A stretch of DNA of 32,000 bases from Halorubrum ruber. Its GTDB lineage: Archaea > Halobacteriota > Halobacteria > Halobacteriales > Haloferacaceae. Location: the NCBI RefSeq assembly GCF_018228765.1, contig NZ_CP073695.1, positions 2,309,218-2,341,217 on the forward strand. The letters run 5' to 3'. Both the position numbers and the translations under genes were made by a program. This document shows positions 3,670-28,986 of this stretch, piece by piece. Below the pieces are notes generated by a model. The model was not told the DNA's origin, did no database searches, and saw only the letters and a list, made by a program, of their open reading frames with translations. The number at the start of each line of letters is the position of its first letter. The first letter of the stretch is position 1.

Positions 3670-3828
3670 ATGACTACTCTCTCTGATGACGAAGTCACAA
3701 TTTCAAGTGACAAGATTGAACAAATTCGGGAGCGCGTACTGAAAGCAGAAAAAGAGAAACTCCACTTAGATCTCCCACGTGGGATTAATGACGAAATTGA
3801 GCAAATAATTATAGAGGAAATTAACTAA
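3670..3828 (+). CDS. 52-aa small protein, first gene of SMC operon (absent from supplied ORF track)
   Basis: MTTLSDDEVTISSDKIEQIRERVLKAEKEKLHLDLPRGINDEIEQIIIEEIN; stop overlaps the next start (TAATG); TATA box upstream. Confidence 0.65.
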   Translation: MTTLSDDEVTISSDKIEQIRERVLKAEKEKLHLDLPRGINDEIEQIIIEEIN

Positions 3829-9097: not shown

Positions 9098-9757
9098 TCA
9101 GACTGGTTGCTTTACAAACTCTGTTACAACGTAGAACGGAAGCGTATCAATTAGCGCGACAAGCAGCTTCACGATGTACTGCCCAGCGACGATTGAGGCG
9201 AGTGCCCAGCCCCACGTTGGCTCCCCACCAAGGCCGAGTGCCGGGAAGATAGCGAAGCCGAGCGTGATGAACACGATCGTGTCCACGCCTTGACTGACTG
9301 CAGTAGACCCACAGTTCCGAAGCCAGCGATGGCGACCGCCGGTGCGAGTCTTCAGATTGGCGAATAATCGGACGTCGAGATGCTGGGCGAACGCGAGCGC
9401 GACGACGGAGGCGAGGATGATCGATGCGGAGCCGCCAAGCGTCGATACGAACGCGTCTTGTCCACCGTAGAACGGGGCAGACGGCATCCAAATGGCGAGG
9501 AACACGAGCGCATACGCGATGACGAGCGTGACGACGGTTCCGTTGACCACGGTCGCAGCGTACTCTTTCCCGTGGTACTCGACAAGCAGGTCTGAAGCGA
9601 GGTAAGCCACGCCGAAGGCGACGAAACCGGCGGGGACGGCGACGCCCCCAAGCCCGGGGAGCTCGATCCACGTCAGTTTCGCTGCGAGGACGTTTGCGAG
9701 AACGATTGAACCGGCGAACACGGCGGTGAAGATCGCGCGAGTATCCTCAGTCTCCAT
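9098..9757 (-). CDS. queuosine precursor transporter family (DUF165/YhhQ-like)
   Basis: Multi-pass membrane protein; ANVLAAKL...VPAGFVAFGVAYLASDLLVEYHGKEYA...FANLKTRTGGRHRWLRNCGSTAVSQGVDTIVFITLGF is typical of the family. Confidence 0.88.
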   Translation of the reverse strand: METEDTRAIFTAVFAGSIVLANVLAAKLTWIELPGLGGVAVPAGFVAFGVAYLASDLLVEYHGKEYAATVVNGTVVTLVIAYALVFLAIWMPSAPFYGGQDAFVSTLGGSASIILASVVALAFAQHLDVRLFANLKTRTGGRHRWLRNCGSTAVSQGVDTIVFITLGFAIFPALGLGGEPTWGWALASIVAGQYIVKLLVALIDTLPFYVVTEFVKQPV

Positions 9758-9911
9758 CAGCTGTCACCGTCTTGTATGGGCGTACAGTTTCCTGTGGTTC
9801 GCTGTCTTGAGCTGACCCCAGTAGAAACCGGTGCGCAACGACCGATAGGGTAGACGGTGGATGAGTGTGAGTCGGGTTGCTGTTCCATCGGTGAAGTAAC
9901 GAAACTCAATC

Positions 9912-9920
9912 TTTATATAT
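9912..9920 (+). promoter_or_regulatory. TATA box upstream of queD
   Basis: TTTATATAT about 25 bp upstream of the ATG at 9941 (leaderless arrangement). Confidence 0.5.
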
Positions 9921-9940
9921 TCCCCGAATATTCTTCGAGT

Positions 9941-10402
9941 ATGTCCCGAAGTATATCAAGAGATGAATCCGAATCAGACGTCCTTCGTGAGGCCGGCCAA
10001 CGAACCCTCCACATCGGAGAGGATAACCCCATCCGAATTAGCTCGGGCCACCGTATTCTCCACCACGACGGAAAGTGCTCGCGGCCACACGGCCACAACT
10101 ACGAGATCGCCGTCGAAGTTACCGGCGAACTCATCGAAGAGGGGTGGGTCGTCGACAAAGGTGACGTCACAGACGTCATCGACGCGTGGGATCACCGATT
10201 CCTTGTCGAGGAGGGTGACCCGCTCGTCGACGCATTCGAGGCGTCGGGCGACGGCGACGCCCTCGTCGTCCTCGATCACCCACCAACGGCAGAGGTAATG
10301 AGCGTGCTCCTCGAACAGCGAATGCTCGACGCGTTCCCCGACACCGTCTCCGACGTGTCGGTGTCGGTGAGTGAAACCGGCGAGCTCTGTGCGAGTTACT
10401 GA
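9941..10402 (+). CDS. queD: QueD-family 6-carboxy-tetrahydropterin synthase
   Basis: ISSGHRILHHDGKCSRPHGHNYEIAVEVTGE; WDHRFLV; HPPTAEVM; overlaps queE by 1 nt. Confidence 0.88.
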   Translation: MSRSISRDESESDVLREAGQRTLHIGEDNPIRISSGHRILHHDGKCSRPHGHNYEIAVEVTGELIEEGWVVDKGDVTDVIDAWDHRFLVEEGDPLVDAFEASGDGDALVVLDHPPTAEVMSVLLEQRMLDAFPDTVSDVSVSVSETGELCASY

Positions 10403-11178
10403 TGCCAGTCGTAAGCGATGTGGAAGAACCCACAACGGACGCTGACGCGGCTGGTGAGGGCCTCCCAATCAACGAGGTGTTCTACTCGTTGCAGGGTGAG
10501 GGGACGCTCGCAGGCGTTCCCTCTGTCTTCGTGCGGACTTCTGGGTGTAACCTGCGGTGTTGGTTCTGCGATTCCTACCATACGTCGTGGGAGCCGACCG
10601 GCGCGTGGCGCGATGTCGACACGATCGTGGAAGAAGTACAGTCGCACGAACAGGCGAACCACGTCGTACTCACGGGCGGGGAGCCGCTCATCCACGAGGA
10701 GTCCATCGATCTCTTGGAGCGACTCGACGCCGAGGGGTACCACACAACGGTGGAGACAAACGGGACCATCTACCGGGACGCACCAATCGACCTCGCAAGC
10801 ATCAGCCCGAAGCTGGCGAGCAGCACGCCGACGCCGGATCGGGACCCGAAAGGCGAGGGCGAGTGGGAAGAGAAACACGAGCAAAACCGGATCGATATGG
10901 ATGCGTTGTCCCAGATGGTCGACGACTACGAGACGCAACTCAAGTTCGTCGTGACCGATGAGACAGACCTTCCGGAGATTACGGACCTCGTCGATCGAGT
11001 GCGGGCGGCGGCGACGACGACCATTGCTGACGACGACGTGTTGTTGATGCCGGAAGGTATGACGCGGGAGCAACTTGACGGAACGCGAAGCCAGGTGGCA
11101 GAGTTAGCGATGGAGTACGGCTACCGATACACCCCCCGACTCCACGTGGACCTGTGGAATGACGCACCCGGGACATGA
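10402..11178 (+). CDS. queE: 7-carboxy-7-deazaguanine synthase, radical SAM
   Basis: NEVFYSLQGEGTLAGVPSVFVRTSGCNLRCWFCDSYHTSW with CxxxCxxC; VVLTGGEPL; TVETNGT. Confidence 0.92.
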   Translation: MPVVSDVEEPTTDADAAGEGLPINEVFYSLQGEGTLAGVPSVFVRTSGCNLRCWFCDSYHTSWEPTGAWRDVDTIVEEVQSHEQANHVVLTGGEPLIHEESIDLLERLDAEGYHTTVETNGTIYRDAPIDLASISPKLASSTPTPDRDPKGEGEWEEKHEQNRIDMDALSQMVDDYETQLKFVVTDETDLPEITDLVDRVRAAATTTIADDDVLLMPEGMTREQLDGTRSQVAELAMEYGYRYTPRLHVDLWNDAPGT

Positions 11179-11263
11179 ACGTCGCCTTGGTCGGCCCGAC
11201 CGATGGAGTGCCGTGGGGGCGTGGTGAACAGGACGACAATTGACTCAACACAACCGAAAATAC

Positions 11264-11953
11264 ATGAGCAATAAAAGCGCGGTCATTCTGGTTTCTGGCG
11301 GGATGGATAGTGCGACAGCGGTGTACGAAGCAATGGATCAGGGGTACGAGCCGTACTTCCTCCACACCTCATATGGGCAACGCACCGAAGACAAAGAGTA
11401 CGAGTGCGCACAGGCACTTGCCGAGGAGGTCGATGCGGCTGACTTCCTCCACATTGAAACGGGCCATCTCGCACAGATTGGGGCGTCGAGCCTGACGGAC
11501 GAAGAGATGGACGTCGCCGATGCTGACTTGGAGAGCGACGAAATTCCCACGTCGTACGTCCCCTTCCGCAACGCGAATCTACTGTCGATGGCAACATCGT
11601 ACGCAGAGGCGACTGACTCGGAGGCGCTGTTTATCGGAGCCCATTCTGAGGACTTCTCCGGGTATCCGGACTGTCGTCCGGCCTTTTTTGACGCCTTTCA
11701 GCAGGTGATCAACGTCGGAACGAAGCCCGAGACGGAAATCGAGTTGAAAGCGCCGTTCGTCGAGTGGTCGAAAACAGACATCGCTGAGCGTGGGTTAGAA
11801 CTTGGTGTCCCATACGACATCACGTGGTCGTGTTACCGGGACGAAGAGCCGGCGTGCGGGACGTGTGATGCGTGTGCGTTCCGGCTTGAGGCGTTCCGAA
11901 ATGCTGGGTCACGTGACCCGATTGCGTACGCTGAGCGACCTAAGTTTTCGTAA
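11264..11953 (+). CDS. queC: 7-cyano-7-deazaguanine (preQ0) synthase
   Basis: VILVSGGMDSATA PP-loop; VPFRNANLLSMATSYAE; FIGAHSEDFSGYPDCRPAFF; zinc motif SCYRDEEPACGTCDACAFR. Confidence 0.92.
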   Translation: MSNKSAVILVSGGMDSATAVYEAMDQGYEPYFLHTSYGQRTEDKEYECAQALAEEVDAADFLHIETGHLAQIGASSLTDEEMDVADADLESDEIPTSYVPFRNANLLSMATSYAEATDSEALFIGAHSEDFSGYPDCRPAFFDAFQQVINVGTKPETEIELKAPFVEWSKTDIAERGLELGVPYDITWSCYRDEEPACGTCDACAFRLEAFRNAGSRDPIAYAERPKFS

Positions 11954-11997: not shown

Positions 11998-12399
11998 TTA
12001 GGATTTGTTGCTGGTGTCGCCAGTAAACTCATCCTCTCCGTTGAGTCGTCCCGTGACTCCATTTATAGCATAGATGAGTGTTGCTGCGACGTCGAACGCC
12101 TCTGTTCGTGACAGTCCCGAGATGGGCTTGGTCACGAACTCTTCTCCGTCCATATTCACACCAGTGATTGGAGTTACCGTATAGTCGCCATCGCCCATCG
12201 TCCCGTCAAGACGAACGAGGATTGTTTGATCGTCATCGTATATCCACTCAACGTAGTACTCATCATGAATCTCTTCGCTCCATCCTGACGGATAATAATC
12301 AAGACGCTCAGTTTCGCTTTCTGGCATGAGACGTATCTTGGTGTCGTCTACAGCAACAAATAAATCTGGTTGCGTGTCCTTCTGATGTAGTCCTCTCAC
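11998..12399 (-). CDS. hypothetical acidic protein
   Basis: 133-aa ORF (GTG start in track) lying between queC and a duplicated queC 3' end; DYYPSGWSEEIHDEYYVEWIYDDDQTILVRLDG. Confidence 0.55.
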   Translation of the reverse strand: MRGLHQKDTQPDLFVAVDDTKIRLMPESETERLDYYPSGWSEEIHDEYYVEWIYDDDQTILVRLDGTMGDGDYTVTPITGVNMDGEEFVTKPISGLSRTEAFDVAATLIYAINGVTGRLNGEDEFTGDTSNKS

Positions 12400-12421
12400 T
12401 GTATTAGCGCACGTGATTTTT

Positions 12422-12487
12422 GAAGCGTTCCGAAATGCTGGGTCACATGACCCGATAACGTACTCTGAGCGGCCAGAATTCTCGTGA
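12422..12487 (+). pseudogene. remnant of a second, diverged queC 3' end
   Basis: Reads EAFRNAGSHDPITYSERPEFS* in frame against queC C-terminus EAFRNAGSRDPIAYAERPKFS*. Confidence 0.85.
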
Positions 12488-13855: not shown

Positions 13856-15463
13856 CTATCCGGCGAGGAGGTCATATCTACGCTTTACTTCTTGTAATGA
13901 CCCCGTGGATGTCGGAACACCATCAACATCGGCGTCCGGATGATTCCGAGCAGTTTCCGCAAACATCGAAACTCGTTCGAGTTCCTTCCGGATGAGTGTC
14001 CGCTCAATTTCATACTGATCGTCGGACAGCATTTCTGGGTGTCTTTGAGTATCTGGTATTGTGATGAAGTCATGAATTACGGCATATTTTTTACCTTCGT
14101 ATTTTCGAAGGATCCGTCCTCTTCGTTGGACGTATTGTCGTGGATTCGATGTACTTGCTAGGATGTATGCCGTCCGTGTAGCAGGAATATCAACGCCCTC
14201 GTCAAGACATCTAATAGAAGTTAGAACGTCAATTTCTTCCTCATCGAACCGTGTCAACAGCTGTTTTCGTTCCTGTTGATTTTCGCGTGCGGTAAAGCGC
14301 TCAACAGACAAGTTACACTCATTTCGGATTCTCTCTGTTGTCAGGTCTACGTGACGCTGTAATTGGCCATCAACCTCCAATTTGCCATCACTACAGTAGA
14401 CAAGCGTGTGCTTGGTATCTATCTCAGAATTCAATAAATCAATAAGCAAGAATAGCTTCTCACGAGCGGTACCAATTAATCGAGCTCTTTTAAAAAGAGC
14501 TTGCTGTAAAGCAGGATTCTGTTCAAGATTCAAATTCCCTTCTTTGTCATTCGATTTCCCTGCAAGTCGACCGATCTTTGTGGTCAAACGCATGTACTCC
14601 TCCATCTCTTCGTCCTGTAATTCGACTATATGGGGAATGTAGTAATACTCACATAGTGCACCGGCTTCGATAGCTTTCTCAAGTCCATATTCAAAAACGG
14701 TTCCTCCAAAATATGCATCCAATTCTTTCGTCCCTTCTTCATCATACCATCTTTCTGGCGTTGCCGAAAGACCAAGTCGGAGGTCAAACTGATCACTAAG
14801 TGCCTCCTGTGTCTGAGCAGCACCCATATGGTGTACTTCATCTGCAATCAGCATTGAATTCCCGTTAGCCCTTCGAATTGTTTTTCTCGCAGATTCTCCT
14901 GACAGCGTTCGGTGTGTTGTAACTACTACGCAGGTGTCACGCATTCCGTTGTTGAATTCTAGCAGCTCACGTTCAAGCCGAGGTTGCCAATTACGTCGTG
15001 ATTCAAAGGCAAGAACAGGGGTAGCACCGAAATCATCGAGGTTAGATTTCCACTGATTAACGAGATGTTGATATGGCACTGCGACGACGAGCAGGAATTT
15101 TTTATCGACAGACTGATCCACACGCGTCGCGGCAAGGAGGGCTGTGACCGTTTTACCAGTCCCTGTTGCCATTTCTAGTATTCCCTTTCCTCCGGCAGAC
15201 ATCCACTCTTGTATTGCTTCTTGTTGATATGGACGGGCTTCTATCCAATCAGGAACGTGGAGGCCCTCATGAGACATCTTATCTACCTCAAAATGGCCCG
15301 CTGATATATATCTAAGCCGTGATGTTAAATTCACCAAAGTTAGGATTCCAAAAGCATCCTTAGCGAGAGTTCGAGTTGTTTTGGTCAAGAGAAGATTTGG
15401 TAACGAGTACTCTTTTACCTCCTCGGGATCGATACGGTTGCAATGACAACGCTTCTGGTACAA
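13856..15463 (-). CDS. SF2 DEAD/DEAH (SSL2/XPB-like) helicase, resembling Dnd-system restriction helicases
   Basis: GILEMATGTGKTVTALLAA; MLIADEVHHMGA; LGLSATPERWYDEEGT; TSIRCLDEGVDIPATRTAYILASTSNPRQYVQRRGRILRKYEGKKYAVIHDFI. Start could instead be the internal Met near 15277. Confidence 0.85.
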   Translation of the reverse strand: MYQKRCHCNRIDPEEVKEYSLPNLLLTKTTRTLAKDAFGILTLVNLTSRLRYISAGHFEVDKMSHEGLHVPDWIEARPYQQEAIQEWMSAGGKGILEMATGTGKTVTALLAATRVDQSVDKKFLLVVAVPYQHLVNQWKSNLDDFGATPVLAFESRRNWQPRLERELLEFNNGMRDTCVVVTTHRTLSGESARKTIRRANGNSMLIADEVHHMGAAQTQEALSDQFDLRLGLSATPERWYDEEGTKELDAYFGGTVFEYGLEKAIEAGALCEYYYIPHIVELQDEEMEEYMRLTTKIGRLAGKSNDKEGNLNLEQNPALQQALFKRARLIGTAREKLFLLIDLLNSEIDTKHTLVYCSDGKLEVDGQLQRHVDLTTERIRNECNLSVERFTARENQQERKQLLTRFDEEEIDVLTSIRCLDEGVDIPATRTAYILASTSNPRQYVQRRGRILRKYEGKKYAVIHDFITIPDTQRHPEMLSDDQYEIERTLIRKELERVSMFAETARNHPDADVDGVPTSTGSLQEVKRRYDLLAG

Positions 15464-15877
15464 TCCTGTTCAGACACCAAAAACTCAGTCTCTACGCCCA
15501 CTCCGGCTCTTGATGTATATGATGGATATTTTTATAAAATTATCAAGAAGGCTATAAGAGAAGGAGAGTTTCGATCTGATATCGATATTCGAATTCTATC
15601 TGCAAAGCATGGTCTTCTCAAACCTAATGAGAAGATTCGATCCTATGACCGCCAGATGACTCAATCACGAGCTGCGGACCTTCGAGAGTCTGTCACAATG
15701 AATCTACAAGAACTGGTACAACAAAAGGAATACAACCGGATCGTTCTTAATATGGCCCGCGAGTATCGAAGTTCAATCGGAGAAATTCATGATTACCAAG
15801 GGCAAGTGAGTGAGATCTCTGGGAGTGGTATTGGCGAAAAGGGTGGGAAACTCAAGAAGTTCATCCGGGGAGACTGA
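15443..15877 (+). CDS. DUF6884-like small protein
   Basis: MTTLLVQSCSDTKNS...DIRILSAKHGLLKPNEKIRSYDRQMT...YNRIVLNMAREYRSSI; first gene of the TGT/GHKL operon. Confidence 0.65.
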   Translation: MTTLLVQSCSDTKNSVSTPTPALDVYDGYFYKIIKKAIREGEFRSDIDIRILSAKHGLLKPNEKIRSYDRQMTQSRAADLRESVTMNLQELVQQKEYNRIVLNMAREYRSSIGEIHDYQGQVSEISGSGIGEKGGKLKKFIRGD

Positions 15878-15881
15878 CTGA

Positions 15882-17123
15882 ATGGGATTCAAACAAAAAC
15901 AGCATGATAATAATGGATTTGAGATTGCTAATCAAGCAGGAGCAGCACGCACTGGGACACTCCAAGTTGGAGACACAGAATTAAAAACACCAAATCTCTT
16001 TCCTGTAGTGAATTTCTACGCAGGGGGGACCTCATCAAGCCTGTACGGGGGAGGCATACATCGCACAATGAAGGAGTTCATGAACGGAGATGAAGTCATA
16101 AACGGCGGTGACTACAGCGAATACTTTGACGGCGTGATGACGTCTGTGGCTTCTTTAACTGACTACGGGATAACAAAAGAGCGATATGAAGAGTACATTG
16201 ACACTCCAATCAAGGAGAGAGACCTGTTTGATTTTGACGGCGTTCTATTTATTGATTCAGGGGGGTTCAAATTCCTCGGAGACAAGACATTGGATGGTAG
16301 TGATTTTGAAGTCGATGTCGATCAGAGGACAATTATAGAGATTCAACGTAAGCTTGGTGCTGACCTCGTTTTGAATCTTGACCGCCCAATTGAGCCTGAT
16401 GATGATTACGAAACTCGGATTCAAAAAGCACGTATGACGGCACAAAATGTCGATCAATTCCTTGAATTGACTGACCGACAGAAACAGACACGGTACCTAA
16501 CTCTTCATGGGTACAACTACTCTATGCTGAATACGTTTCTCACCGAGATTGAGAAAGTAATTGGAAAAAACCGTGTACACCGAGAATTTGACGGCGTAGC
16601 TCTCGGAAGCCTGGTTCCGCTTAAAGATAACAAGGGTAAGTTGATCACTGCGGTGAGCGACTGCAGAGAAGTCCTCGACGACTGGGGCTTTGATGATCTT
16701 CCATTACACGTCCTTGGTATTTCTTCAAGCGCAATTCCACTGCTTGCAGCAGTTGGTGCGGATACATTCGACTCATCGTCTTATCTTCACGCTGCAATTA
16801 ACGGGAAGTATCATACGTCGTTGTACAATACAGAACCGCTTGATGACGTTGATTTCTCAAACTGTGATTGCCCAGTCTGCTCTGACGACAAGCTTGTGAA
16901 TTGGATGGAGGGTGATGCCGAGTATCAGAAAGACAAGCTTGGAGCAGTATCAATGCATAACCTCATAATACAGAAAGAGGAAATCAGTCGCGTTAGGGAA
17001 GCAATCAGCAAGTCGGGAACCGACGGTTTGATTGAATATTTCGAACAATCGCTCAGCCGTCACAAATCGATGCAGCAGCATGCACACAGGGTTGTGAATG
17101 ATTCTCTTGGAGGATACTTCTAA
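15882..17123 (+). CDS. TGT/DpdA-like transglycosylase 1 (putative 7-deazaguanine DNA insertion enzyme)
   Basis: GAARTGTL; LFIDSGGFKFLG; VALGSLVPL; LHVLGISSSAIPLLAAVGADTFDSSSY (predicted nucleophile Asp); CDCPVC...SMHNLIIQKEEISRVREAI (zinc site pattern). No PUA domain. Confidence 0.82.
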   Translation: MGFKQKQHDNNGFEIANQAGAARTGTLQVGDTELKTPNLFPVVNFYAGGTSSSLYGGGIHRTMKEFMNGDEVINGGDYSEYFDGVMTSVASLTDYGITKERYEEYIDTPIKERDLFDFDGVLFIDSGGFKFLGDKTLDGSDFEVDVDQRTIIEIQRKLGADLVLNLDRPIEPDDDYETRIQKARMTAQNVDQFLELTDRQKQTRYLTLHGYNYSMLNTFLTEIEKVIGKNRVHREFDGVALGSLVPLKDNKGKLITAVSDCREVLDDWGFDDLPLHVLGISSSAIPLLAAVGADTFDSSSYLHAAINGKYHTSLYNTEPLDDVDFSNCDCPVCSDDKLVNWMEGDAEYQKDKLGAVSMHNLIIQKEEISRVREAISKSGTDGLIEYFEQSLSRHKSMQQHAHRVVNDSLGGYF

Positions 17124-17125
17124 CA

Positions 17126-18679
17126 ATGTCAACAACAAAAACTCCCCAGGTAAATGAAGTAAACGAGTTCCTAGAAATTGCGAGTGACTTCGAAGATCCG
17201 CTCGAAGTAATCCGTGAATCCCTGTCTAATAGCTACGATGCAGGGGCTACTGAGGTCGAGATTACGATTAGAGACAGACCGATTGGATCCGAGATCGTGA
17301 TCGAAGATGATGGTGACGGGATGGACTATGCTGACCTAGAATCCTTCTTCGATTTGGGCAATTCGACGAAACGAGACCCGTCCTCTGATGCCATCGGCTA
17401 CAAAGGACATGGGACAAAAATATTCTATAAAAGCGAGGAGGTACTCGTCAATACTTCCAAAGAAGGAACGAATCTCCGTGCGCAAATGGAACAGCCCTGG
17501 GAAAAACTCAACAACCGAGTAATGCCTGAATACGAAGTTAGAGAACGCTCGGTGAAGGAGGGTAATAACGGGACTCACATCCGCATTACCGGATTCAAAT
17601 CCGGACGTGGATTCTCTCCTTCCTCACTTACTTATAATAAAATTGAACACTATTTGAAATGGAAGACGCTTGCAGGATCCACCGCTCACTACTTCACAGA
17701 TGACTATCACGAGATGGATATATATATCACGTTGGGTGACGAGATCGACGATACCCAGGAAACGCTCAAATTAGATAATAAACTCGAATTTCCCGATGAA
17801 CAGATTGAGCCCGGAGAAGGAAAATTTCCGGAATCAAGGATGTGTAAGCACTATCCACCTCGTGAGCTGACGGTGGAGACTGATGACGGAGATACAGCAA
17901 TTATCGAAGTAGTAGGCATGATTGGTGGGAAAGATGCTCGCAACGAACTCCCAACATACGGGAAGCATTCAGCGCAATTCGGGATCTGGCTTGCTAAGGA
18001 TTATATCAAAGTCGAACGTGTCAACGAAGTCATCTCACATGACAACGAGTTCCTCCACTTCTTTTTCGTGGCAAACTGCCAAGATATTGAGCTCTCTGCG
18101 AACCGTGAGAAAATCCGGAACAAATCGAGCTCTATCTACCAAGCAATTAAAGAAGAATTGAGCCACTATCTTTCCAAAATAGCTTCTGATCCTTGGTTCA
18201 AGGATTATCTCAATCAGCGACGAAAGGCCAAACTCTCGCGTCGAGCAGAATCTCAACAGTCTTCAGTCGAAGACCGTGAGAAGCGAATTCTCGATCGTGA
18301 GCAGTTTACTCCCTCTAATGATGCTGAGGTAGTTCTCGGTCTTGAAAGATCAAACCGGGAAGGTGCTCTCCCTAAGATTGTCGTTGAGGACTACGACCCC
18401 AGTGTAGAGGTTAACGCACTCGTCAAGCAGGATGATTCACTCTATGCGAGTTCGATCCATCATAAACTCACAGACCATTTTGAGGCAGACAAGCCTTTGG
18501 AGTCTGTTGATAAAATCATCTGCTGGTCGTATGGTGACCCCGACCAACTGAGTGAACTTGAGCGTCATGGATATCATGGGGGAGATATCACATTTGACCT
18601 CAATACAGGTCGGATTGAGTATCAGAACGGTCGAAAGCATAATATCCATATCGTTTCTGTCGAACAACGGTTTCAGTAG
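17126..18679 (+). CDS. GHKL ATPase (MORC/Hsp90-like N-terminal fold)
   Basis: VIRESLSNSYDAGATEVEI (N box), IVIEDDGDGMDYADLESFF, AIGYKGHGTKIFY, GTHIRITGF, ELSANREKIRN; starts 2 nt after the TGT 1 stop. Confidence 0.85.
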   Translation: MSTTKTPQVNEVNEFLEIASDFEDPLEVIRESLSNSYDAGATEVEITIRDRPIGSEIVIEDDGDGMDYADLESFFDLGNSTKRDPSSDAIGYKGHGTKIFYKSEEVLVNTSKEGTNLRAQMEQPWEKLNNRVMPEYEVRERSVKEGNNGTHIRITGFKSGRGFSPSSLTYNKIEHYLKWKTLAGSTAHYFTDDYHEMDIYITLGDEIDDTQETLKLDNKLEFPDEQIEPGEGKFPESRMCKHYPPRELTVETDDGDTAIIEVVGMIGGKDARNELPTYGKHSAQFGIWLAKDYIKVERVNEVISHDNEFLHFFFVANCQDIELSANREKIRNKSSSIYQAIKEELSHYLSKIASDPWFKDYLNQRRKAKLSRRAESQQSSVEDREKRILDREQFTPSNDAEVVLGLERSNREGALPKIVVEDYDPSVEVNALVKQDDSLYASSIHHKLTDHFEADKPLESVDKIICWSYGDPDQLSELERHGYHGGDITFDLNTGRIEYQNGRKHNIHIVSVEQRFQ

Positions 18680-18733
18680 ACGGCTGCAGGTAGCCGACTT
18701 TATCACATTCCGACTTCAATCAAAAGCCATAGA

Positions 18734-20755
18734 ATGGCATCGTTTGAGACTACATCTTCTGACGAGGCCGGTAATGCTCGAACCGGAACTCTCCACACTC
18801 CTCACGGTGATGTGGAAACGCCAGCGTTCTTCCCAGTTGTCAATTTCATAGGCGGACCAGATGAGAAATCAGGGGGAATATGGAGCCGACTTCGGAATCA
18901 CCTATTCGGCGAACCGGATTTTCAGGGAGCGATGTTTCAAGCGATGAGCTTCCTCGATTTTAACATCTCTCCCGATTCTCTCGATAACTGGCGATCAAAG
19001 TCTCTTCATGAGCATTTCACTGGGCATGAGCCAGTTAAGCCATATCATGATCAGCCGGAAGACTTTACCAAGCCGTTGTTTGTTGACTCTGGCGGATTCA
19101 AACTGCTGAATTCCGATACGTTCGGAGATAGACCTGAGGAGGGTGGTTCAGATAACGACTGGTCGATATACACCAATCCTGAGAGCATCCTTGAATTACA
19201 ACTTGACTACGGCGCGGACATAATTGCCACACTAGATTACCCCATTCCACCGAATCTCAACGAGGAAGAGACGACTCAGCGAATGGAAGACAGTATTGAT
19301 AGTGCTATACGCTGTCTTGAGCTTCTTGAACAAAGAGATGAGTCACCAGCAGTCTATGTGGCCATTCATGGCCACGACTACGAAACGATCAACTGGTATG
19401 TTGGTACGTTTCTTGACCGGGCAGGAGACCTTGACAACGCGTTCGAAGGGTTTGCAGTAGGGTCGCTAGTTCCACTCCGCACCAACGTAGAAACACTCGT
19501 TGATATTGTACAGGGTGCGAAGGATGCAATTCCTGAAAATCGGGTAGACGACCTCGGACTGCACCTGTTCGGCATTAGTGGGAAGTTCACTGCACTTCTT
19601 GCTCTTCTGGGTGCAGACTCGTTCGATTCATCTAGCTACATCCGTGCTGCCCAATTCAAGAAATTCATCAACCGCGAAATCGGTGTTGACGACGGTACGA
19701 CCGTTCGGCACCCAGATTCGGATAGCCACGATCTTGGCGATTTTGGTGTCGACATAGAACGGACATCTGAAGCGCGCTGGGCAGCGGACTGGTCAAAGTT
19801 CTCTGCCGATCAGATCCCCGACGACTGGGATTGCCAGTGCTCAGCTTGCGAAGCACTCCGCGAGATTGGGTATGACCAGATGCAGTCCACCCTATTCGAC
19901 AGCAAATCGTATGACCAGAGCGGAGATCATATGAAGAGCGATTTCTACGCGCTAATGGGGTATCACAACTTCCACGTTTATCAAGACGAGATGGACTATG
20001 TCCGCAATCTTATCCAACAGGGAGATGGTGAACTCCTCGACTACGTCGCTAAGATGGCCCGTAATGATGTAGGCGGCATTAGACAGGCACTCAAACGGGC
20101 TACTGTCCGCGACAGAGATTTGGCTACAGAACTCCGAGAACGTGGTTACGACAGACTCGTCGCTGAACGGGCGGACGGAGAGCAGGAACGCCTCAATGTC
20201 GACCTTCCGGTTGAAAGCCACGAGATCTCTCTTGAGTACACGCCCGAGGACTTCAATGTCTTAGAGCGTGACGACTATTGTCCGGGTGACGAACGAGTAC
20301 TTCTGATCATACCCTGCAGTCAAACCAAGCCGTACTCAAATTCCCGCACTCACCGAGTAGTCGCTGACGCGACTACCGAATGGAAGGATGAAATACACAA
20401 AGTCACCGTTTCAGGGATGTACGGTCCTGTCCCTGAAGAATTTGAGAATATTTCACCGATCAAATCATACGAATACGTCCTAACTGATGCCGAAACAGAC
20501 CGTCAGAATCTCATCAAAAATCGACTCGTCGAATATTTAAATCGTTTTGGCGGTGACTTCGATGTAATTGTTGGCTACGCCACGAGTAAGACATATCGTG
20601 AAGTCATCAAGCGATCCTTGGAAGAGTATGGCGAAGGTGTAGTTTTGCCTCGTGAACCCGAAATGCGAGCGTTGACAGAACACTTCCGTACAACGAATCT
20701 TCAGCAATTGGCAGACTATCTTGAGGAAGAATTAGCACCCCAAACCCGGAATTAG
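18734..20755 (+). CDS. TGT/DpdA-like transglycosylase 2 fused to DUF5591-like C-terminal domain
   Basis: NARTGTLHTPHGDVETPAFFPVVNFIGG; LFVDSGGFKLLNS; FAVGSLVPL; LHLFGISGKFTALLALLGADSFDSSSY; CQCSAC...MGYHNFHVYQDEM; C-term ERVLLIIPCSQTKPYSNS...IKSYEYVLTDAETDRQ...FDVIVGYATSKTYREVIKRSL. Confidence 0.82.
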   Translation: MASFETTSSDEAGNARTGTLHTPHGDVETPAFFPVVNFIGGPDEKSGGIWSRLRNHLFGEPDFQGAMFQAMSFLDFNISPDSLDNWRSKSLHEHFTGHEPVKPYHDQPEDFTKPLFVDSGGFKLLNSDTFGDRPEEGGSDNDWSIYTNPESILELQLDYGADIIATLDYPIPPNLNEEETTQRMEDSIDSAIRCLELLEQRDESPAVYVAIHGHDYETINWYVGTFLDRAGDLDNAFEGFAVGSLVPLRTNVETLVDIVQGAKDAIPENRVDDLGLHLFGISGKFTALLALLGADSFDSSSYIRAAQFKKFINREIGVDDGTTVRHPDSDSHDLGDFGVDIERTSEARWAADWSKFSADQIPDDWDCQCSACEALREIGYDQMQSTLFDSKSYDQSGDHMKSDFYALMGYHNFHVYQDEMDYVRNLIQQGDGELLDYVAKMARNDVGGIRQALKRATVRDRDLATELRERGYDRLVAERADGEQERLNVDLPVESHEISLEYTPEDFNVLERDDYCPGDERVLLIIPCSQTKPYSNSRTHRVVADATTEWKDEIHKVTVSGMYGPVPEEFENISPIKSYEYVLTDAETDRQNLIKNRLVEYLNRFGGDFDVIVGYATSKTYREVIKRSLEEYGEGVVLPREPEMRALTEHFRTTNLQQLADYLEEELAPQTRN

Positions 20756-20804: not shown

Positions 20805-20900
20805 AGCGGATCTGAAATCCTGTTCTTCAGAGACATCTTCTTCTGATACAGTTGGTCGCTAAAGAGTATACACCAATCATTAGCTTAGGTATCTAATAGG
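20805..20900 (+). repeat. diverged left-end copy (C) of MITE-like family
   Basis: GATCTGAAATCCTGTTCTTCAGAGACATCTTCTTCTGATACAGTTGGTCGCTAAAGAGTATAC aligns with the left ends at about 21.69 and 26.81 kb. Confidence 0.5.
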
Positions 20901-21687: not shown

Positions 21688-21994
21688 AATCTGTTGTATC
21701 TCCTTTTTCAGATATCTTCTTGTCTGAAACAGCTGGTTGCTGAAGAGTACGAACCATCCTATTGCTCGGAGCATAGAACTAATAACAATCCGTCATACCT
21801 GATCCTATGACAGGGTATGACGCTCTCAGTCTCCGACAAATCTTGATACTCTTGCTCGGCGTCAGCATGATTGTGAGTGGTGCGGCCGGCCTCGCCGGAG
21901 TCTTCTAACTGATTCACTGTACTGAGCGATTCTTGATTCCCCTGTATTGCCGTAACGAGACAAACGTAGTTCCTATTGAGGATTTCACAGAACC
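21688..21994 (+). repeat. MITE-like element copy A (about 307 bp) with degraded terminal inverted repeats
   Basis: Internal sequence and 33-aa ORF match copy B; left end near ATCTGTTGTATCTCC and right end GAGGATTTCACAGAAC are degraded inverted repeats. Confidence 0.6.
21807..21908 (+). CDS. 33-aa hydrophobic micro-ORF inside element A
   Basis: MTGYDALSLRQILILLLGVSMIVSGAAGLAGVF; conserved length and sequence with the copy at 26932-27033. Confidence 0.6.
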   Translation: MTGYDALSLRQILILLLGVSMIVSGAAGLAGVF

Positions 21995-22093: not shown

Positions 22094-22861
22094 ATGACAT
22101 CCGATCAAATTGCTGCGTACGTACGAGCATCCACCGACAAGCAAGAGACATCCCACCAGCGGGACGATATCAACGAATGGGCCAAGCAAAACGGACATGC
22201 TCCGACCGAGATTGAGTGGTACGTCGACCTCGCGGAATCAGGTAGCGACCCCGGGCGCAAACAATTCAATTCACTCATCGACGACGTCGAAGCAGGCAAT
22301 TATGAGCGGGTGATCACGTGGGAGATCAGTCGATTATCGAGACTCGGGAGCACGTATCAGCGATTCTTTGAAGTGGCAGCTGACGCCGACACGATCGTGA
22401 ATGTCACGAACGGGTGGACAGACACTATCCTACCCGACGGCACCGGCAAGCTCATCGCAGATATAAGCGCGGCAGTTGCCGAGGAGGAACGCAGAAAGCT
22501 CATCAGTCGGATCAATTCAGGAGTAAAAAGAGCACGAAAAGAGGGCAAGTGGTTGGGCGAAGTTCCCACGGGATTTGACCGGAACGAACTGGGATACCTA
22601 CGACCACTAATCAACCCAGGAGAGGGCAAAGTGGGATACCTCGAAATGCGGGAAGCGCTCGTCGACATCGAGGAGGGAGAGTCATACAATTCTGCAGCTG
22701 CATCGATGGCGACGACCCGACAGACGTTGAGCCGAATCGATCAGGATGACGAGCGGCGATCATGGTACCTTGACGGACGAGCCGAGGACGATCGTGTCGC
22801 TGAAGCTCTCGAAACAGTGTCGAGTAGTAGCGATAACTTGAGGACTCCGACAGACTCCTAG
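22094..22861 (+). CDS. serine recombinase / resolvase
   Basis: IAAYVRASTDKQETSHQRDDI; VITWEISRLSRLGSTYQRFF; AAVAEEERRKLISRINSGVKRARKEGKWLGEVPTGF; C-terminal HTH. Confidence 0.93.
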   Translation: MTSDQIAAYVRASTDKQETSHQRDDINEWAKQNGHAPTEIEWYVDLAESGSDPGRKQFNSLIDDVEAGNYERVITWEISRLSRLGSTYQRFFEVAADADTIVNVTNGWTDTILPDGTGKLIADISAAVAEEERRKLISRINSGVKRARKEGKWLGEVPTGFDRNELGYLRPLINPGEGKVGYLEMREALVDIEEGESYNSAAASMATTRQTLSRIDQDDERRSWYLDGRAEDDRVAEALETVSSSSDNLRTPTDS

Positions 22862-23108: not shown

Positions 23109-23190
23109 GGCTCTCTTGAAATCCTACTCTTTAGACACATCCTAGCCTAAAACAGTTGTTCGGTGAGAACTGCGAACTTGCCTCGTCGAG
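23109..23190 (+). repeat. left-end remnant (copy D) of MITE-like family
   Basis: GGCTCTCTTGAAATCCTACTCTTTAGACACATCCTAGCCTAAAACAGTTGTTCGGTGAGAACTGCGAAC aligns over about 75 nt with the left end of copy B. Confidence 0.5.
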
Positions 23191-26809: not shown

Positions 26810-27123
26810 GCTTTGTTGAAACGTTCTTCTTCAGAGATATTCTTGTCTGAAACGGCTGGTCGTTGAAAGGTACGAACTGTCCTAATTGCTCGGAGCATAG
26901 AACTAATATACAGCCCGTGGTACTCCGTTCTATGATAGGGTATGACGCCCTCGGCCCGCAGCAGATCATGATCCTCTTGCTTGGCGTCACGATGATTGTG
27001 ACTGGTGGAGCCGGTCTCCTCGGAGCCTTCTAACTGAGTTCACTGTATTGACCGATCCGTACTTCAGCTGTACTGAGCGAGTGAGGGAGCGAAACTATCA
27101 ACTGATGAGGGTTTCAACAAAGC
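26810..27123 (+). mobile_element. MITE-like element copy B, 314 bp with 13-bp perfect terminal inverted repeats
   Basis: GCTTTGTTGAAAC at 26810-26822 and GTTTCAACAAAGC at 27111-27123; internal part is homologous to copy A. Confidence 0.7.
26932..27033 (+). CDS. 33-aa hydrophobic micro-ORF inside element B
   Basis: MIGYDALGPQQIMILLLGVTMIVTGGAGLLGAF; paralogous to 21807-21908. Confidence 0.6.
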   Translation: MIGYDALGPQQIMILLLGVTMIVTGGAGLLGAF

Positions 27124-28901: not shown

Positions 28902-28986
28902 GCGCGGGTTGCCGAGCCAGGCCAAAGGCGTAGCGCTTAGGACGCTATCCCGTAGGGGTCCGCCGGTTCGAATCCGGTCCCGCGCA
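28902..28986 (+). tRNA. tRNA-Leu, anticodon TAG
   Basis: Acceptor GCGCGGG/CCCGCGC plus discriminator A; anticodon stem-loop TAGCG-CTTAGGA-CGCTA; variable arm CCCGTAGGGG; T-arm GGTTCGAATCC; 85 nt, class II. Confidence 0.93.

Follow-up and report, generated by a model that had tools for sequence, protein, structure and literature searches.

Gene content of the locus

We analysed a stretch of 32,000 nt of the genome of Halorubrum ruber (the window) and found a four-gene cassette that forms one operon on the forward strand, in the order DUF6884, TGT1, GHKL ATPase and TGT2::DUF5591. The DUF6884 gene (15443..15877; 144 aa) heads the operon and is followed after 4 nt by the short transglycosylase paralog TGT1 (15882..17123; 413 aa), after another 2 nt by a MORC-like GHKL ATPase (17126..18679; 517 aa), and after a further 54 nt by the long paralog TGT2 (18734..20755; 673 aa), which consists of a complete TGT domain, a helical linker and a C-terminal DUF5591 domain. 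A first-pass annotation had described the two TGT-fold proteins as paralogs of one operon. Both proved to be real genes with exact ORF positions, and the operon was confirmed, with the paralogs non-adjacent and the ATPase gene between them. The DUF5591 fusion, the DpdC-like DUF6884 gene, the MORC-like ATPase and the upstream genes for QueD, QueE, QueC and a YhhQ-family protein had not been mentioned there; jointly, these features define the identity of the locus.

The QueD/E/C and YhhQ-family genes are located 4-6 kb upstream of the TGT pair. QueD (ORF 9857-10402, homology from near 9998; Pfam PTPS 2.2e-19), QueE (10402-11178; Pfam Radical_SAM 2.2e-17) and a canonical QueC (11240-11953; Pfam QueC 2.5e-73, 246 bits) are encoded on the forward strand, and a YhhQ/COG1738-family (Vut_1) membrane protein (9098..9757; Pfam Vut_1 E 3.4e-39) is encoded on the reverse strand, divergent from queD. 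QueD/E/C are predicted to supply the base 7-cyano-7-deazaguanine (preQ0) and the YhhQ-family protein is predicted to import it. A role of this family in preQ0 transport has been reported (PMC5372724), and YhhQ is also found in bacterial dpd islands (PMC12235509). The que genes of the window showed 67-74% identity (tblastn) to those of a Haloarcula locus (L002). In 13 of the 35 loci retrieved through TGT2, QueD/E/C were encoded no more than 10 kb from the cassette, and in L002, L014-L016, L018, L027 and L038 they were directly divergent from TGT2.

Two transglycosylase paralogs with intact active-site residues

Both paralogs matched the Pfam TGT domain PF01702 (E 1.3e-27 for TGT1, E 2.7e-31 for TGT2). 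They aligned with each other over a span of 317 aa with 32% identity (BLASTP, E 6e-44) and with the Pyrococcus horikoshii arcTGT (1iq8) at 89 bits (TGT1) and 41 bits (TGT2), and the two are therefore nearer to one another than to 1iq8, which was the best solved relative of TGT1 (E 2.7e-24). The TGT2 model had a pLDDT of 74.4, and its top Foldseek matches were arcTGT and bacterial TGT.

All motifs listed in the first-pass annotation were found in both proteins: ARTGTL (residues 22-27 in TGT1, 15-20 in TGT2), (I/V)DSGGFK (124-130, 117-123), GSLVPL (242-247, 243-248), GAD(T/S)FDSSSY (292-301, 293-302) and the zinc pattern, which reads CDCPVC at 328-333 followed by HN at 359 in TGT1 and CQCSAC at 367-372 followed by HN at 411 in TGT2. 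The shared motifs aligned to the acid/base Asp95, substrate-binding Asp130, nucleophile Asp249 and zinc ligands Cys279/281/284/His307 of 1iq8. Residue mapping gave Asp125 (acid/base), Asp167, His209, Ser243, Asp297 (nucleophile) and zinc ligands Cys328/330/333/His359 for TGT1, and Asp118 (acid/base), Asp168, His212, Ser244, Asp298 (nucleophile), Cys367/369/372 and His411 for TGT2. The alignment agrees with the predicted Asp nucleophile. Both paralogs, and both families throughout, retain the two catalytic Asp residues, the substrate-binding Asp and the zinc site. The 14 pocket, catalytic and zinc positions examined were all identical between TGT1 and TGT2, which leaves the earlier idea of different deazapurine substrates unsupported.

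At the position of arcTGT Gln169 both proteins carry a His. The same Gln-to-His change is present at the base-binding position of Salmonella DpdA (His181), a match that we took from the description in PMC10164549. The difference in length noted before (413 vs 673 aa) is correct; it is not due to scattered insertions and is accounted for mainly by the C-terminal DUF5591 domain plus one lineage-specific insert of 36 aa in TGT2 (residues ~316-351). Profile scans with Pfam and NCBIfam found no PUA domain in TGT1 or TGT2, in agreement with the previously noted lack of a PUA-type tail.

Placement among TGT families

On the NCBIfam TgtA model TGT1 scored 137.8 bits and TGT2 98 bits against a cut-off of 350, where true arcTGTs reached 418-548 bits. 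On the NCBIfam DpdA model the scores were 29.7 and 19.0 bits, respectively (cut-off 200). In 53 of 60 bootstraps of a neighbour-joining tree, the smallest clade uniting TGT1 and TGT2 included no Gln-type arcTGT, and the TGT1 clade was monophyletic in 60/60. Identity with the tRNA arcTGTs was rejected on TgtA score, missing PUA domain and this position outside the arcTGT clade; orthology to bacterial DpdA was rejected on the DpdA scores. Phylogeny had been proposed earlier as a check, and the paralogs do not nest in the tRNA arcTGTs. The label "TGT/DpdA-like" holds for the TGT fold and for the Gln-to-His change shared with DpdA, but membership of the DpdA family by HMM was not found. The accompanying argument against a tRNA role agrees with a genomic context that is DNA-directed and defence-related. 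Database annotations name both paralogs tRNA-guanine transglycosylases.

Two related domains predicted to modify nitriles

The DUF5591 domain of TGT2 spans residues ~513-667 (nt ~20270-20755; Pfam E 3.3e-19) and carries the motif PCSQTKPYSNSRTH at residues 527-540, in which the PC-x3-KPY-x2-S-x2-H pattern is intact. In family alignments the Pro, Cys, Lys, Pro, Tyr and Ser of this motif were invariant and Ser-Arg-Thr-His was nearly invariant. The NCBIfam ArcS model matched residues 514-665 only, with 82.8 bits (cut-off 440), and AF0587 (PDB 2q07) aligned with residues 514-643. The TGT domain itself matched TGT models and not the N-terminal region of ArcS. By Foldseek, the C-terminal part resembled YaaA and DUF6884 proteins, and TGT2 also matched the TGT-like protein R9TGF0 of Vibrio phage nt-1. 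Canonical ArcS may need the radical-SAM partner RaSEA, which is absent here, and the product of the TGT2 DUF5591 domain is therefore uncertain. In phage nt-1 a DUF5591 core alone (ArcS2) converts dPreQ0 to dG+ in DNA (PMC10516641).

The DUF6884 protein is a short DpdC/YaaA-like protein of the "cantaloupe fold" with matches to DUF6884 (E 8e-14), YaaA (4.6e-7) and DUF5591 (0.006) in Pfam and to DpdC (8.7e-7) and PDC-M57A (3.4e-9) in PADLOC. It is net basic (K+R 0.16, D+E 0.13). Its CxxxK (SCSDTK, residues 8-13) and LSAxxG (ILSAKHG, residues 51-57) motifs were both invariant in the family alignment. DUF6884 is also a domain of bacterial DpdC (PMC12235509), and the predicted role of the protein is to act on the nitrile group once preQ0 has been placed in DNA. 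A comparison by hhalign showed remote homology between DUF6884 and DUF5591 (E 1e-4; 128 columns) and brought their CxxxK motifs into register.

A MORC-like ATPase between the paralogs

The GHKL ATPase (Pfam HATPase_c_3, E 3.4e-17) showed the Bergerat motifs E31xxxN35, D61xGxG65 and G91-K98, and in addition contains a transducer and a small C-terminal domain. Its AlphaFold2 model (pLDDT 79.8) matched MORC2 with DNA in the PDB (9cdh; target-normalised TM 0.50, rmsd 5.7), and further Foldseek matches were MORC3/4, the MutL N-terminal domain, GyrB 43K and Hsp90. Identity across Halobacteria was 58-80%, and in 32 loci the TGT1 stop and the GHKL start abut or overlap (median gap -1 nt). We predict that this protein is the ATP-driven DNA-handling partner of TGT1 and a functional analogue of DpdB, the ATPase that Salmonella DpdA needs for DNA modification (PMC10164549). 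Prokaryotic MORC/paraMORC proteins of R-M systems likewise combine GHKL and transducer domains in R-M-like operons (Iyer, Abhiman and Aravind 2008, PMC2292703), and the cassette ATPase resembles MORC and MutL proteins in its fold matches. Our literature searches found no MORC/paraMORC GHKL protein associated with a TGT-type base-exchange enzyme.

Conservation and genomic surroundings

All four genes were present in 31 of the 35 haloarchaeal loci, a set found via the long paralog TGT2. DUF6884, TGT1 and GHKL were always colinear (median gaps -4 and -1 nt), and TGT2 adjoined this trio but differed in strand and position between loci. TGT2::DUF5591 was found without TGT1 within 10 kb in four haloarchaeal loci (L017, L020, L023, L032) and in four bacterial loci, three cyanobacterial and one poribacterial, where its neighbours included a DUF262 protein and HEPN (Planktothrix) or a PLD-SNF2 helicase (Poribacteria). 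The cassette combines two sub-modules, the rigid trio and the separately placed TGT2::DUF5591 gene.

Divergent from the cassette of the window lies an SF2 helicase of the "dnd_restrict_1"/PbeA C-terminal type (13856..15463, reverse strand; likely start Met64, nt 15274), with Pfam ResIII and Helicase_C domains, 560 bits on TIGR04095 (cut-off 600) and a PADLOC match to PbeA (2.4e-165) covering profile positions 242-668 only. The helicase-cassette layout is repeated in Halorubrum sp. GN11_10-6 (L003) with 96% identity. For this genome we regard the helicase as the candidate for a restriction partner. Its association with the cassette extends to L003 and partly L022 only, and the family is named for phosphorothioate systems. 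DpdJ-like helicases were encoded in nine related loci (NF041067 E 1e-50; PADLOC 1.6e-53), in eight of them beside a DpdK-like PLD protein (3.4e-12; 2.6e-11), and seven loci carried a second, DpdJ/DruE-like helicase. The window contained no homologues of DpdD-K. Overall, the loci differ in their neighbouring helicase/nuclease modules, and in several of them no obvious nuclease gene adjoins the cassette.

The island has a GC content of ~0.45, compared to 0.69-0.73 in the host flank, with a step at ~28.9 kb. At this edge lies a tRNA-Leu gene (28902..28986, forward strand; ARAGORN), the probable integration site. The island also carries HNH genes and, as a mobile-island marker outside the modification chemistry, a serine recombinase (22094..22861, forward strand; Pfam Resolvase 1e-26). 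Copies of the cassette were found on plasmids (L038; H7, H8). In the window, as in L012 and L021, GmrSD-type enzymes are encoded close to the cassette.

Comparison with known systems

The cassette shares with the bacterial Dpd system (DpdA/DpdB/DpdC plus DpdD-K; Salmonella Montevideo) an island-borne TGT fold with Asp/Asp pair and base-binding His, an ATPase encoded with the TGT gene (required by Salmonella DpdA), a DUF6884-type nitrile modifier, co-located queD/E/C and yhhQ, and, in related loci, DpdJ- and DpdK-like genes. Unlike in Dpd, the TGTs are non-orthologous to DpdA and derive from a "His-type" clade of arcTGT-like proteins, the ATPase belongs to the MORC-like GHKL type and is not ParB-like as DpdB is, the DUF6884 protein has 144 aa vs ~319 positions in the PADLOC DpdC profile, a second TGT carries a fused ArcS-type domain, the host is archaeal and the window is without DpdD-K. 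We found no earlier account of this archaeal counterpart to the bacterial Dpd system.

With DpdA2 and ArcS2 of Vibrio phage nt-1, which produce dPreQ0 and then dG+ in DNA, the cassette has in common a DNA transglycosylase, predicted as such here, and a bare DUF5591 core with the same motif pattern and no PUA; here, however, both activities are fused in TGT2, the gene is cellular and island-borne, and a second TGT, an ATPase and a DUF6884 protein are added. The archaeosine pathway (TgtA and ArcS) resembles it in 1iq8 fold and sequence, catalytic and zinc residues, the ArcS motif and the preQ0 precursor, whereas the cassette TGTs are without the C1/C2/PUA tRNA-binding domains, fall below equivalog cut-offs in a separate clade, differ in residues (DSGGFK vs DSGxFQ, His vs Gln169, GSLV vs G(G/S)(V/I/P)V) and are accessory and mobile in distribution.

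BREX-related capture (BRC) systems with TGT and GNAT genes (PMC12839542) likewise place TGTs in defence islands of archaea and bacteria with a presumed deazaguanine self-mark, but that paper reports no DpdB/DpdC homologues or MORC-like ATPase and does not describe the four-gene cassette. A large Phosphodiest/PglZ-like gene was located beside the cassette in L002, L014, L031 and L038, with DUF87 (HerA-type) also in L002. The ~330-aa TGT of haloarchaeal plasmids, e.g. in L045 (344 aa as annotated), showed 26-28% identity to TGT1. As in eukaryotic QTRT1/QTRT2, two TGT paralogs are encoded together and might form a heteromer; in the cassette, though, both keep their catalytic residues, the long one also occurs alone and the presumed substrate is DNA.

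Proposed function and alternatives

Homology, conserved motifs, linkage of the genes and their phylogenetic position, all shown by computation, make it probable in our view that the cassette is a Dpd-like module which writes 7-deazaguanine into double-stranded DNA, as the modification half of an R-M or defence island. The genomic context makes DNA the most likely substrate, and we infer preQ0 as the inserted base as well as the product identities, the role of the ATPase and the restriction partner. Speaking against this reading, neither TGT comes near the cut-off of the DpdA HMM, and a tRNA enzyme is their nearest relative of solved structure.

Because the neighbouring modules vary so much, the cassette might act alone as protection outside an R-M system, a mobile element putting deazaguanine into its own DNA and that of its host to evade host restriction and CRISPR, with no dedicated cognate restriction partner. 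Phage DpdA systems work in this way (PMC6884629), and the recombinase, HNH genes, low GC, tRNA-Leu border, plasmid-borne copies and loci lacking an obvious adjacent nuclease would fit. We nevertheless find this rather unlikely, as the cassette recurs by DpdJ-like helicases (nine loci; DpdK-like in eight) and other helicase-nuclease genes, no virion or conjugation genes were seen around it in the window, and no close homologue was found among 50,697 phage records. An obligate TGT1-TGT2 heterodimer making one modification, with one subunit catalytic and the other positioning the nucleic acid, is improbable. In its favour, bacterial TGT is dimeric, eukaryotic TGT pairs two paralogs in a heterodimer (PMC10164549), and TGT1 and TGT2 co-occur in 31/35 loci. 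The first-pass suggestion of a heterodimer is weakened in its obligate form because TGT2 occurs without TGT1 within 10 kb at four haloarchaeal and four bacterial loci, and its strand and position relative to the trio vary. Moreover, QTRT2 lacks catalytic residues, while every catalytic and pocket residue is kept in both paralogs here.

That one paralog reads or erases 7-deazaguanines of invading virus DNA as an anti-halovirus defence seems quite improbable: haloviruses such as HVTV-1 have deazaguanine-modified DNA (PMC10516641), glycosylases attacking such DNA are known defence enzymes (bioRxiv 2025.10.29.685425) and the GmrSD-type enzymes nearby would be in line with it, but transglycosylation is exchange and not cleavage, linkage to preQ0 biosynthesis and to nitrile-modifying domains fits writing, and the two active sites are indistinguishable. 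An accessory modification of tRNA or other RNA, e.g. a second archaeosine pathway or another tRNA position, is very unlikely even with arcTGT as closest solved structure and best NCBIfam model, the ArcS motif in DUF5591 and the database names. The paralogs are without PUA or C-terminal tRNA-binding domains, score far under the TgtA and ArcS cut-offs where true arcTGTs pass TgtA, fall outside the Gln-type clade, are patchily distributed on islands or plasmids and are linked to DpdJ/K-like genes, a MORC-like ATPase and helicases. A preprint (bioRxiv 2025.04.06.647259) describes a TGT-family enzyme that deazaguanylates protein in a defence system with a QueC-like partner, Cap10 in type IV CBASS. 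We give hardly any weight to a similar conjugation to protein here, such as the GHKL ATPase, as no CD-NTase or other CBASS component was detected among the window ORFs scanned, QueC is canonical with QueD and QueE beside it, and DNA-directed partners are present (DpdC-like protein, MORC-like ATPase, DpdJ/K-like genes).

For the Dpd-like module, we propose that preQ0 would be made by the island-encoded QueD, QueE and QueC and imported by the YhhQ-family protein. Each TGT would then exchange a target guanine in DNA for preQ0, with Asp297/Asp298 as nucleophile and Asp125/Asp118 as acid/base (TGT1/TGT2). Base exchange by double displacement has been shown for tRNA TGTs and DpdA, and the same mechanism may be used by TGT1 and TGT2. 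The GHKL ATPase, translationally coupled to TGT1, might provide ATP-driven clamping or opening of DNA and so take the role of the unrelated ParB-like ATPase DpdB of bacteria. The DNA-borne nitrile would be converted by the two related CxxxK domains, to the amide dADG by the free-standing, DpdC-like DUF6884 protein and to the amidine dG+ or a related adduct by the fused, ArcS/ArcS2-like DUF5591 domain. There would thus be two pairs of transglycosylase and nitrile modifier, and the trio and TGT2::DUF5591 probably differ in sequence context or end product. Unmodified incoming DNA would be attacked by an adjoining helicase/nuclease, here the PbeA/dnd_restrict_1-type helicase and at other loci a DpdJ-like helicase, usually together with a DpdK-like PLD nuclease.

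The cassette and its genomic island

A low-GC island (GC ~0.45) extended from about 3 kb of the window up to a tRNA-Leu gene (28902-28986), and the flank at 29-32 kb showed a GC content of 0.69-0.73; the proteins encoded in the window were acidic. Located on the island were four genes on the + strand, separated by gaps of 4, 2 and 54 nt, that we refer to as the cassette. The first gene of this operon encoded for a DUF6884 protein of 144 aa (15443-15877) and was followed by the short transglycosylase paralog TGT1 (413 aa; 15882-17123), a GHKL ATPase of 517 aa placed between the paralogs (17126-18679), and the long paralog TGT2 (673 aa; 18734-20755). TGT1 and TGT2 both matched Pfam family PF01702 (E 1e-27 and 3e-31, respectively) and were 32% identical to each other across 317 residues (E 6e-44), which confirmed the first-pass annotation of two paralogous TGT-fold genes in one operon. 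The closest relative found was Halorubrum sp. GN11_10-6, with cassette proteins 95-97% identical.

Some 4-6 kb upstream of the cassette, a YhhQ-family (Vut_1) gene and the genes for QueD, QueE and QueC (9098-11953) make up a set for import and synthesis of preQ0. We considered whether these que genes were mere housekeeping copies of the host; their GC content of 0.56-0.61 was intermediate between island and host. The 3' 66 nt of queC (11886-11951) were duplicated 534 bp downstream (12420-12485) with 85% identity, and a small conserved ORF on the - strand (11998-12399) lay between the two copies. This repeat looks like an att-type duplication that arose when DNA integrated at the queC 3' terminus.

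The island cargo also included a serine recombinase and an HNH gene. A repeat was found at four positions in direct orientation (20822-20880, 21703-21761, 23126-23184 and 26826-26884), with a core of ~60 nt, TTCTTCAGAGATATTCTTGTCTGAAACAGCTGGTCGCTGAAGAGTACGAAC, that includes the dyad TTCAGA..TCTGAA. Copies 1-3 were situated in intergenic gaps downstream of TGT2, and two copies ran to ~230 nt (21690-21920 and 26813-27045, ~80% identity) and flanked the segment with the serine recombinase and HNH gene. The repeats could serve as sites for a recombinase or mark the borders of cassettes. Rfam, applied to the whole window at gathering thresholds, gave no match.

On the same island we found genes for a PbeC/DndD-like SMC-type ATPase (3828-5858; PADLOC PbeC E 7e-229) and for a GmrSD-type enzyme of 828 aa with DUF262 and DUF1524 (6417-8903). 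The divergent neighbour of the cassette was a PbeA/dnd_restrict_1-type helicase (13856-15274; TIGR04095, 560 bits); no dnd sulfur-modification genes were present in the window. None of the scanned window proteins matched dpdD-K at the family cut-off (NCBIfam, PADLOC), and the sole match to Dpd restriction in the window was a marginal one of the helicase to DpdF (E 0.003, 16 bits vs a cut-off of 550).

The two transglycosylase paralogs

All motifs that had been quoted for both paralogs were present, and when aligned to the Pyrococcus horikoshii arcTGT structure 1iq8 they fell on Asp95, Asp130, the nucleophile Asp249 and the Zn site Cys279/281/284/His307. According to this residue mapping, both paralogs keep the Asp acid/base, the Asp nucleophile, the substrate Asp and the Zn subdomain, and the predicted model of TGT2 matched the TGT fold (TIM-barrel). 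The identity of TGT1 and TGT2 at 14 catalytic, pocket and Zn positions argues against the earlier suggestion that the paralogs use different deazapurine substrates. The paralogs had further been described as differing in length and insertions; the difference in length (413 vs 673 aa) is real, but the extra length consists of a C-terminal DUF5591 (E 3e-19). After the nucleophile motif and ahead of the Zn site, TGT2 had an acidic insert of 36 residues with low pLDDT (residues ~316-351), which in the alignment was confined to Halorubrum-type sequences.

Neither paralog reached the curated cut-offs of the families compared. TGT1 scored 29.7 bits and TGT2 19.0 bits against NCBIfam DpdA (NF041059), both partial matches far below the cut-off of 200; the PADLOC DpdA profile was matched by TGT1 with 24.7 bits and not by TGT2, and no DpdA structure was among the PDB matches of either (phmmer, E<=0.01). 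Against TgtA (TIGR00432) they reached 137.8 and 98.1 bits with an equivalog cut-off of 350, and true arcTGTs recovered by the same search reached 418-548 bits and carried PUA-type domains. TGT2 matched ArcS (NF040592) with 82.8 bits vs a cut-off of 440, in a match limited to profile positions 288-432 of 575, and differs from the full ArcS architecture (ArcS-type N domain, C1, C2, PUA) in having no PUA domain. No PUA match was found for either paralog (Pfam, NCBIfam), as the first-pass annotation had stated: TGT1 ends ~50 residues past the Zn site and TGT2 runs on into DUF5591 only, unlike the comparison proteins P0308 and P0299, which showed PUA-type matches.

An alignment of 155 sequences revealed a signature common to TGT1, TGT2 and their relatives, namely DSGGF(K/R), His at the position of arcTGT Gln169, and G-S-L-V, whereas true arcTGTs and E. 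coli Tgt showed DSGxFQ and Gln. The base-binding His (His209 in TGT1, His212 in TGT2) was present in 99 of the 155 sequences, and corresponds to His181 of DpdA by the description in PMC10164549. In a neighbour-joining tree (a distance method only; 154 sequences, 335 columns, rooted with E. coli Tgt, 60 bootstraps) TGT1 was monophyletic in 60/60 bootstraps, and TGT2 formed a separate clade, likewise in 60/60. In the reference tree the TGT1+TGT2 clade contained none of the 53 Gln-type sequences, and in 53/60 bootstraps the ancestral node shared by the two paralogs excluded every Gln-type arcTGT; a nesting of both paralogs within the tRNA arcTGTs, named beforehand as evidence against a DNA-directed role, was therefore not found.

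The His/DSGGFK-type signature was also seen in about 100 cluster representatives from archaea and bacteria (P0245-P0388; 340-880 aa), and most of their named public relatives were annotated as 'tRNA-guanine transglycosylase'. This set is probably a large, misannotated clade of non-tRNA TGTs.

The MORC-like ATPase and the putative nitrile-modifier domains

The ATPase encoded between the paralogs was predicted to have a GHKL plus transducer fold (model pLDDT 79.8), and by Foldseek was closest to DNA-bound MORC2, MORC3/4, the MutL N-terminal domain and GyrB. In 26 homologues the Bergerat residues Glu31, Asn35, Asp61, Gly63, Gly65 and the run G91-K98 were invariant, with Tyr92 nearly so; these motifs, together with an S5-type transducer domain, are those of MORC/paraMORC GHKL ATPases. 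In the Dpd system the TGT gene adjoins the gene for ParB-like DpdB; the cassette instead couples a GHKL/MORC-like ATPase to TGT1, and no match to DpdB was found among the scanned window proteins (NCBIfam, PADLOC).

The DUF5591 of TGT2 (Pfam PF17884, E 3.3e-19) is the domain of the ArcS and viral ArcS2 core, i.e. the catalytic core of archaeosine synthase. The motif PC-x3-KPY-x2-S-x2-H was intact in TGT2 residues 527-540 (PCSQTKPYSNSRTH), and across 14 homologues, including bacterial ones, its Pro, Cys, Lys, Pro, Tyr and Ser were invariant and Ser-Arg-Thr-His nearly so. DUF6884 is also found in DpdC of bacteria, the enzyme that turns DNA-borne preQ0 into the amide dADG (PMC12235509; PMC10164549). 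The cassette protein with this domain carried CxxxK and LSAxxG motifs and matched PADLOC DpdC weakly (8.7e-7, profile positions 39-119 of 319), with no NCBIfam DpdC match. DUF6884 and DUF5591 showed Pfam cross-hits and an hhalign match over 128 columns with CxxxK aligned (E 1e-4, probability 56%), the predicted model of the TGT2 C-terminal domain matched YaaA and DUF6884 proteins, and pairwise BLAST of that domain with DUF6884 recovered the CxxxK stretch only. Profile-profile and fold evidence thus argue with moderate strength for a remote homology, by which the operon would combine two TGT domains with two related nitrile-modifier domains. A free-standing DUF6884 protein with a structure like that of the TGT2 C-terminal domain was also found in Halobacterium phage ChaoS9 (A0A481V9V6, BFVD match), where it may be a counter-measure of the virus or belong to a modification pathway of its own.

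Conservation and genomic neighbourhood

Homologues of TGT1, TGT2 and the ATPase number in the hundreds each in haloarchaea. A survey of one genome per species with TGT2 as query returned 35 haloarchaeal loci, of which 31 contained all four cassette genes; some copies were plasmid-borne, and bearers of the cassette included Halorubrum sp. GN11_10-6, H. cibi DSM 19504 and Natranaeroarchaeum sulfidigenes. The genes for DUF6884, TGT1 and GHKL were always colinear (median gaps -4 and -1 nt), and TGT2::DUF5591 adjoined this trio in variable placement (upstream, downstream or on the opposite strand), which suggests that the cassette consists of a rigid trio and a separate second unit. TGT2::DUF5591 with no trio within 10 kb was found in four haloarchaeal and four bacterial loci, the latter from three Cyanobacteria and one member of the Poribacteria (35% identity over the full length). 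Two bacterial loci were scanned for neighbours, which were a DUF262 protein plus HEPN in Planktothrix and a PLD-SNF2 helicase in the poribacterial locus; the DUF262-only protein following the Planktothrix homologue could be a DpdB-like partner there.

In 13 of the 35 loci the genes for QueD/E/C were no more than 10 kb away, in many cases as the immediate divergent neighbours of TGT2. Nine loci contained a DpdJ-like helicase (NF041067 E 1e-50), accompanied in eight by a DpdK-like PLD protein (E 3e-12), and a second DpdJ/DruE-like helicase was present in seven loci. Other defence-type neighbours varied by locus and comprised GmrSD (beside the cassette also in loci L012 and L021), pAgo, DUF87 (HerA-type), a Phosphodiest/PglZ-like gene and a MkoA-like helicase.

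Several neighbours absent from the window were recurrent elsewhere. Proteins of ~415 aa (cluster c8) were encoded near the cassette in 11 loci (L002, L004-L008, L012, L017, L024, L025 and L030) and directly adjoined TGT2 in six, and three proteins of ~975, ~278 and ~233 aa (c12, c18 and c19) occurred together in 8-9 loci. Clusters c8, c12, c18, c19, c20 and c31 had no significant family match in Pfam, NCBIfam or PADLOC; the c8 and c12/c18/c19 proteins are candidates for extra components of the system.

A pair of TGT-like genes unlike that of the cassette (964 and 344 aa) was located on Haloferax alexandrinus plasmid pBNX82-4 (L045, 6018-12562), adjoining genes for a 'BREX system ATP-binding' protein and QueD; a DUF262 protein was encoded about 1 kb upstream. 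TGTs of ~330 aa of this kind were found on ten haloarchaeal plasmids and were 25-28% identical to TGT1. The pair probably represents a BRC-type system, which would make it another type of defence locus with paired TGTs in Halobacteria. BRC, which includes TGT and GNAT genes, has been described as devoid of DpdB and DpdC homologues (PMC12839542).

Proposed function and alternatives

From homology, gene linkage and residue conservation, all of which were observed directly, we infer substrate, products and a partnership with restriction. We propose, as the most likely reading, that the cassette writes 7-deazaguanines into DNA. PreQ0 would be provided by QueD/E/C synthesis or by YhhQ-family import, and each TGT would exchange guanine in DNA for preQ0 by way of its nucleophilic Asp. 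ATP-dependent DNA handling, which DpdB confers on DpdA, would fall to the MORC-like ATPase that is coupled to TGT1. The nitrile would then be turned into dADG and/or dG+ by the DUF6884 protein and the DUF5591 domain, and unmarked DNA would be restricted by the neighbouring helicase/nuclease modules. A further reading, which we regard as possible rather than probable, is that Halobacteria possess a cellular, non-viral system for marking DNA with 7-deazaguanines whose origin from arcTGT was independent of that of bacterial DpdA. Two dedicated pairs of TGT and nitrile modifier would write two marks (e.g. dADG and dG+) or one mark in two sequence contexts, and a MORC-type ATP-gated clamp would replace ParB-type DpdB.

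The cassette might instead protect only the mobile element that carries it, with no cognate restriction partner, which seems plausible to us but rather unlikely. That TGT1 and TGT2 form an obligate heteromer, along the lines of the heterodimer suggested earlier, we judge quite improbable: it is weakened by the loci with TGT2 only and by the intact active sites in both paralogs. It is very improbable that one of the paralogs acts as a reader or eraser of a mark, and a role of the paralogs in tRNA modification is highly unlikely, being contradicted by architecture, phylogeny and context; the earlier argument against it has gained from the missing PUA domain, the position outside the arcTGT clade and the scores below the TgtA cut-off. 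Deazaguanylation of proteins as by Cap10 is barely conceivable, since Cap10 acts in the context of a CBASS operon with a CD-NTase and the QueC-like partner Cap9, and the scanned window ORFs had no CD-NTase or CBASS match (Pfam, NCBIfam, PADLOC). A recent viral origin was also considered. Searched with TGT1 by tblastn, 50,697 phage records yielded no more than six weak matches (23-28% identity), none of them from a halovirus, and such an origin is therefore not supported.

Relation to known systems and implications

DNA 7-deazaguanines are documented in bacteria (Dpd system) and viruses, and in archaea they are known as tRNA modification and from the DNA of archaeal viruses. No report of 7-deazaguanines in archaeal cellular DNA was found in the literature searched. 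Related systems described there are bacterial Dpd, phage DpdA1-4 and ArcS2, BRC with TGT and GNAT, and Cap10. In the full texts searched, with most subscription papers outside this scope, the cassette, a MORC-TGT association and a TGT::DUF5591 fusion were all undescribed, and the cassette genes were not mentioned in a paper on genomic islands of H. ezzemoulense. A census of bacterial dpd loci, which required dpdAB, reported bacterial phyla only (PMC12235509).

The cassette is compact and amenable to testing in Haloferax volcanii. This organism is already a maker of preQ0. Another possible benefit of the cassette would be new enzymes for sequence-specific DNA labelling at high salt. The His/DSGGFK/GSLV signature divides ~100 uncharacterised annotations from true tRNA enzymes and would thereby fix a widespread misannotation. 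If the dual-writer reading is true, the cassette would be the first example both of deazaguanine-marked cellular DNA in archaea and of a dual-writer system for this chemistry. If the cassette modifies DNA, then the TGT fold gave rise to DNA-directed transglycosylases on at least two occasions, ArcS-type chemistry became directly fused to a DNA transglycosylase, and the need for an ATPase partner would be general, filled by unrelated NTP-gated DNA-binding proteins that are ParB-like in bacteria and MORC-like here.
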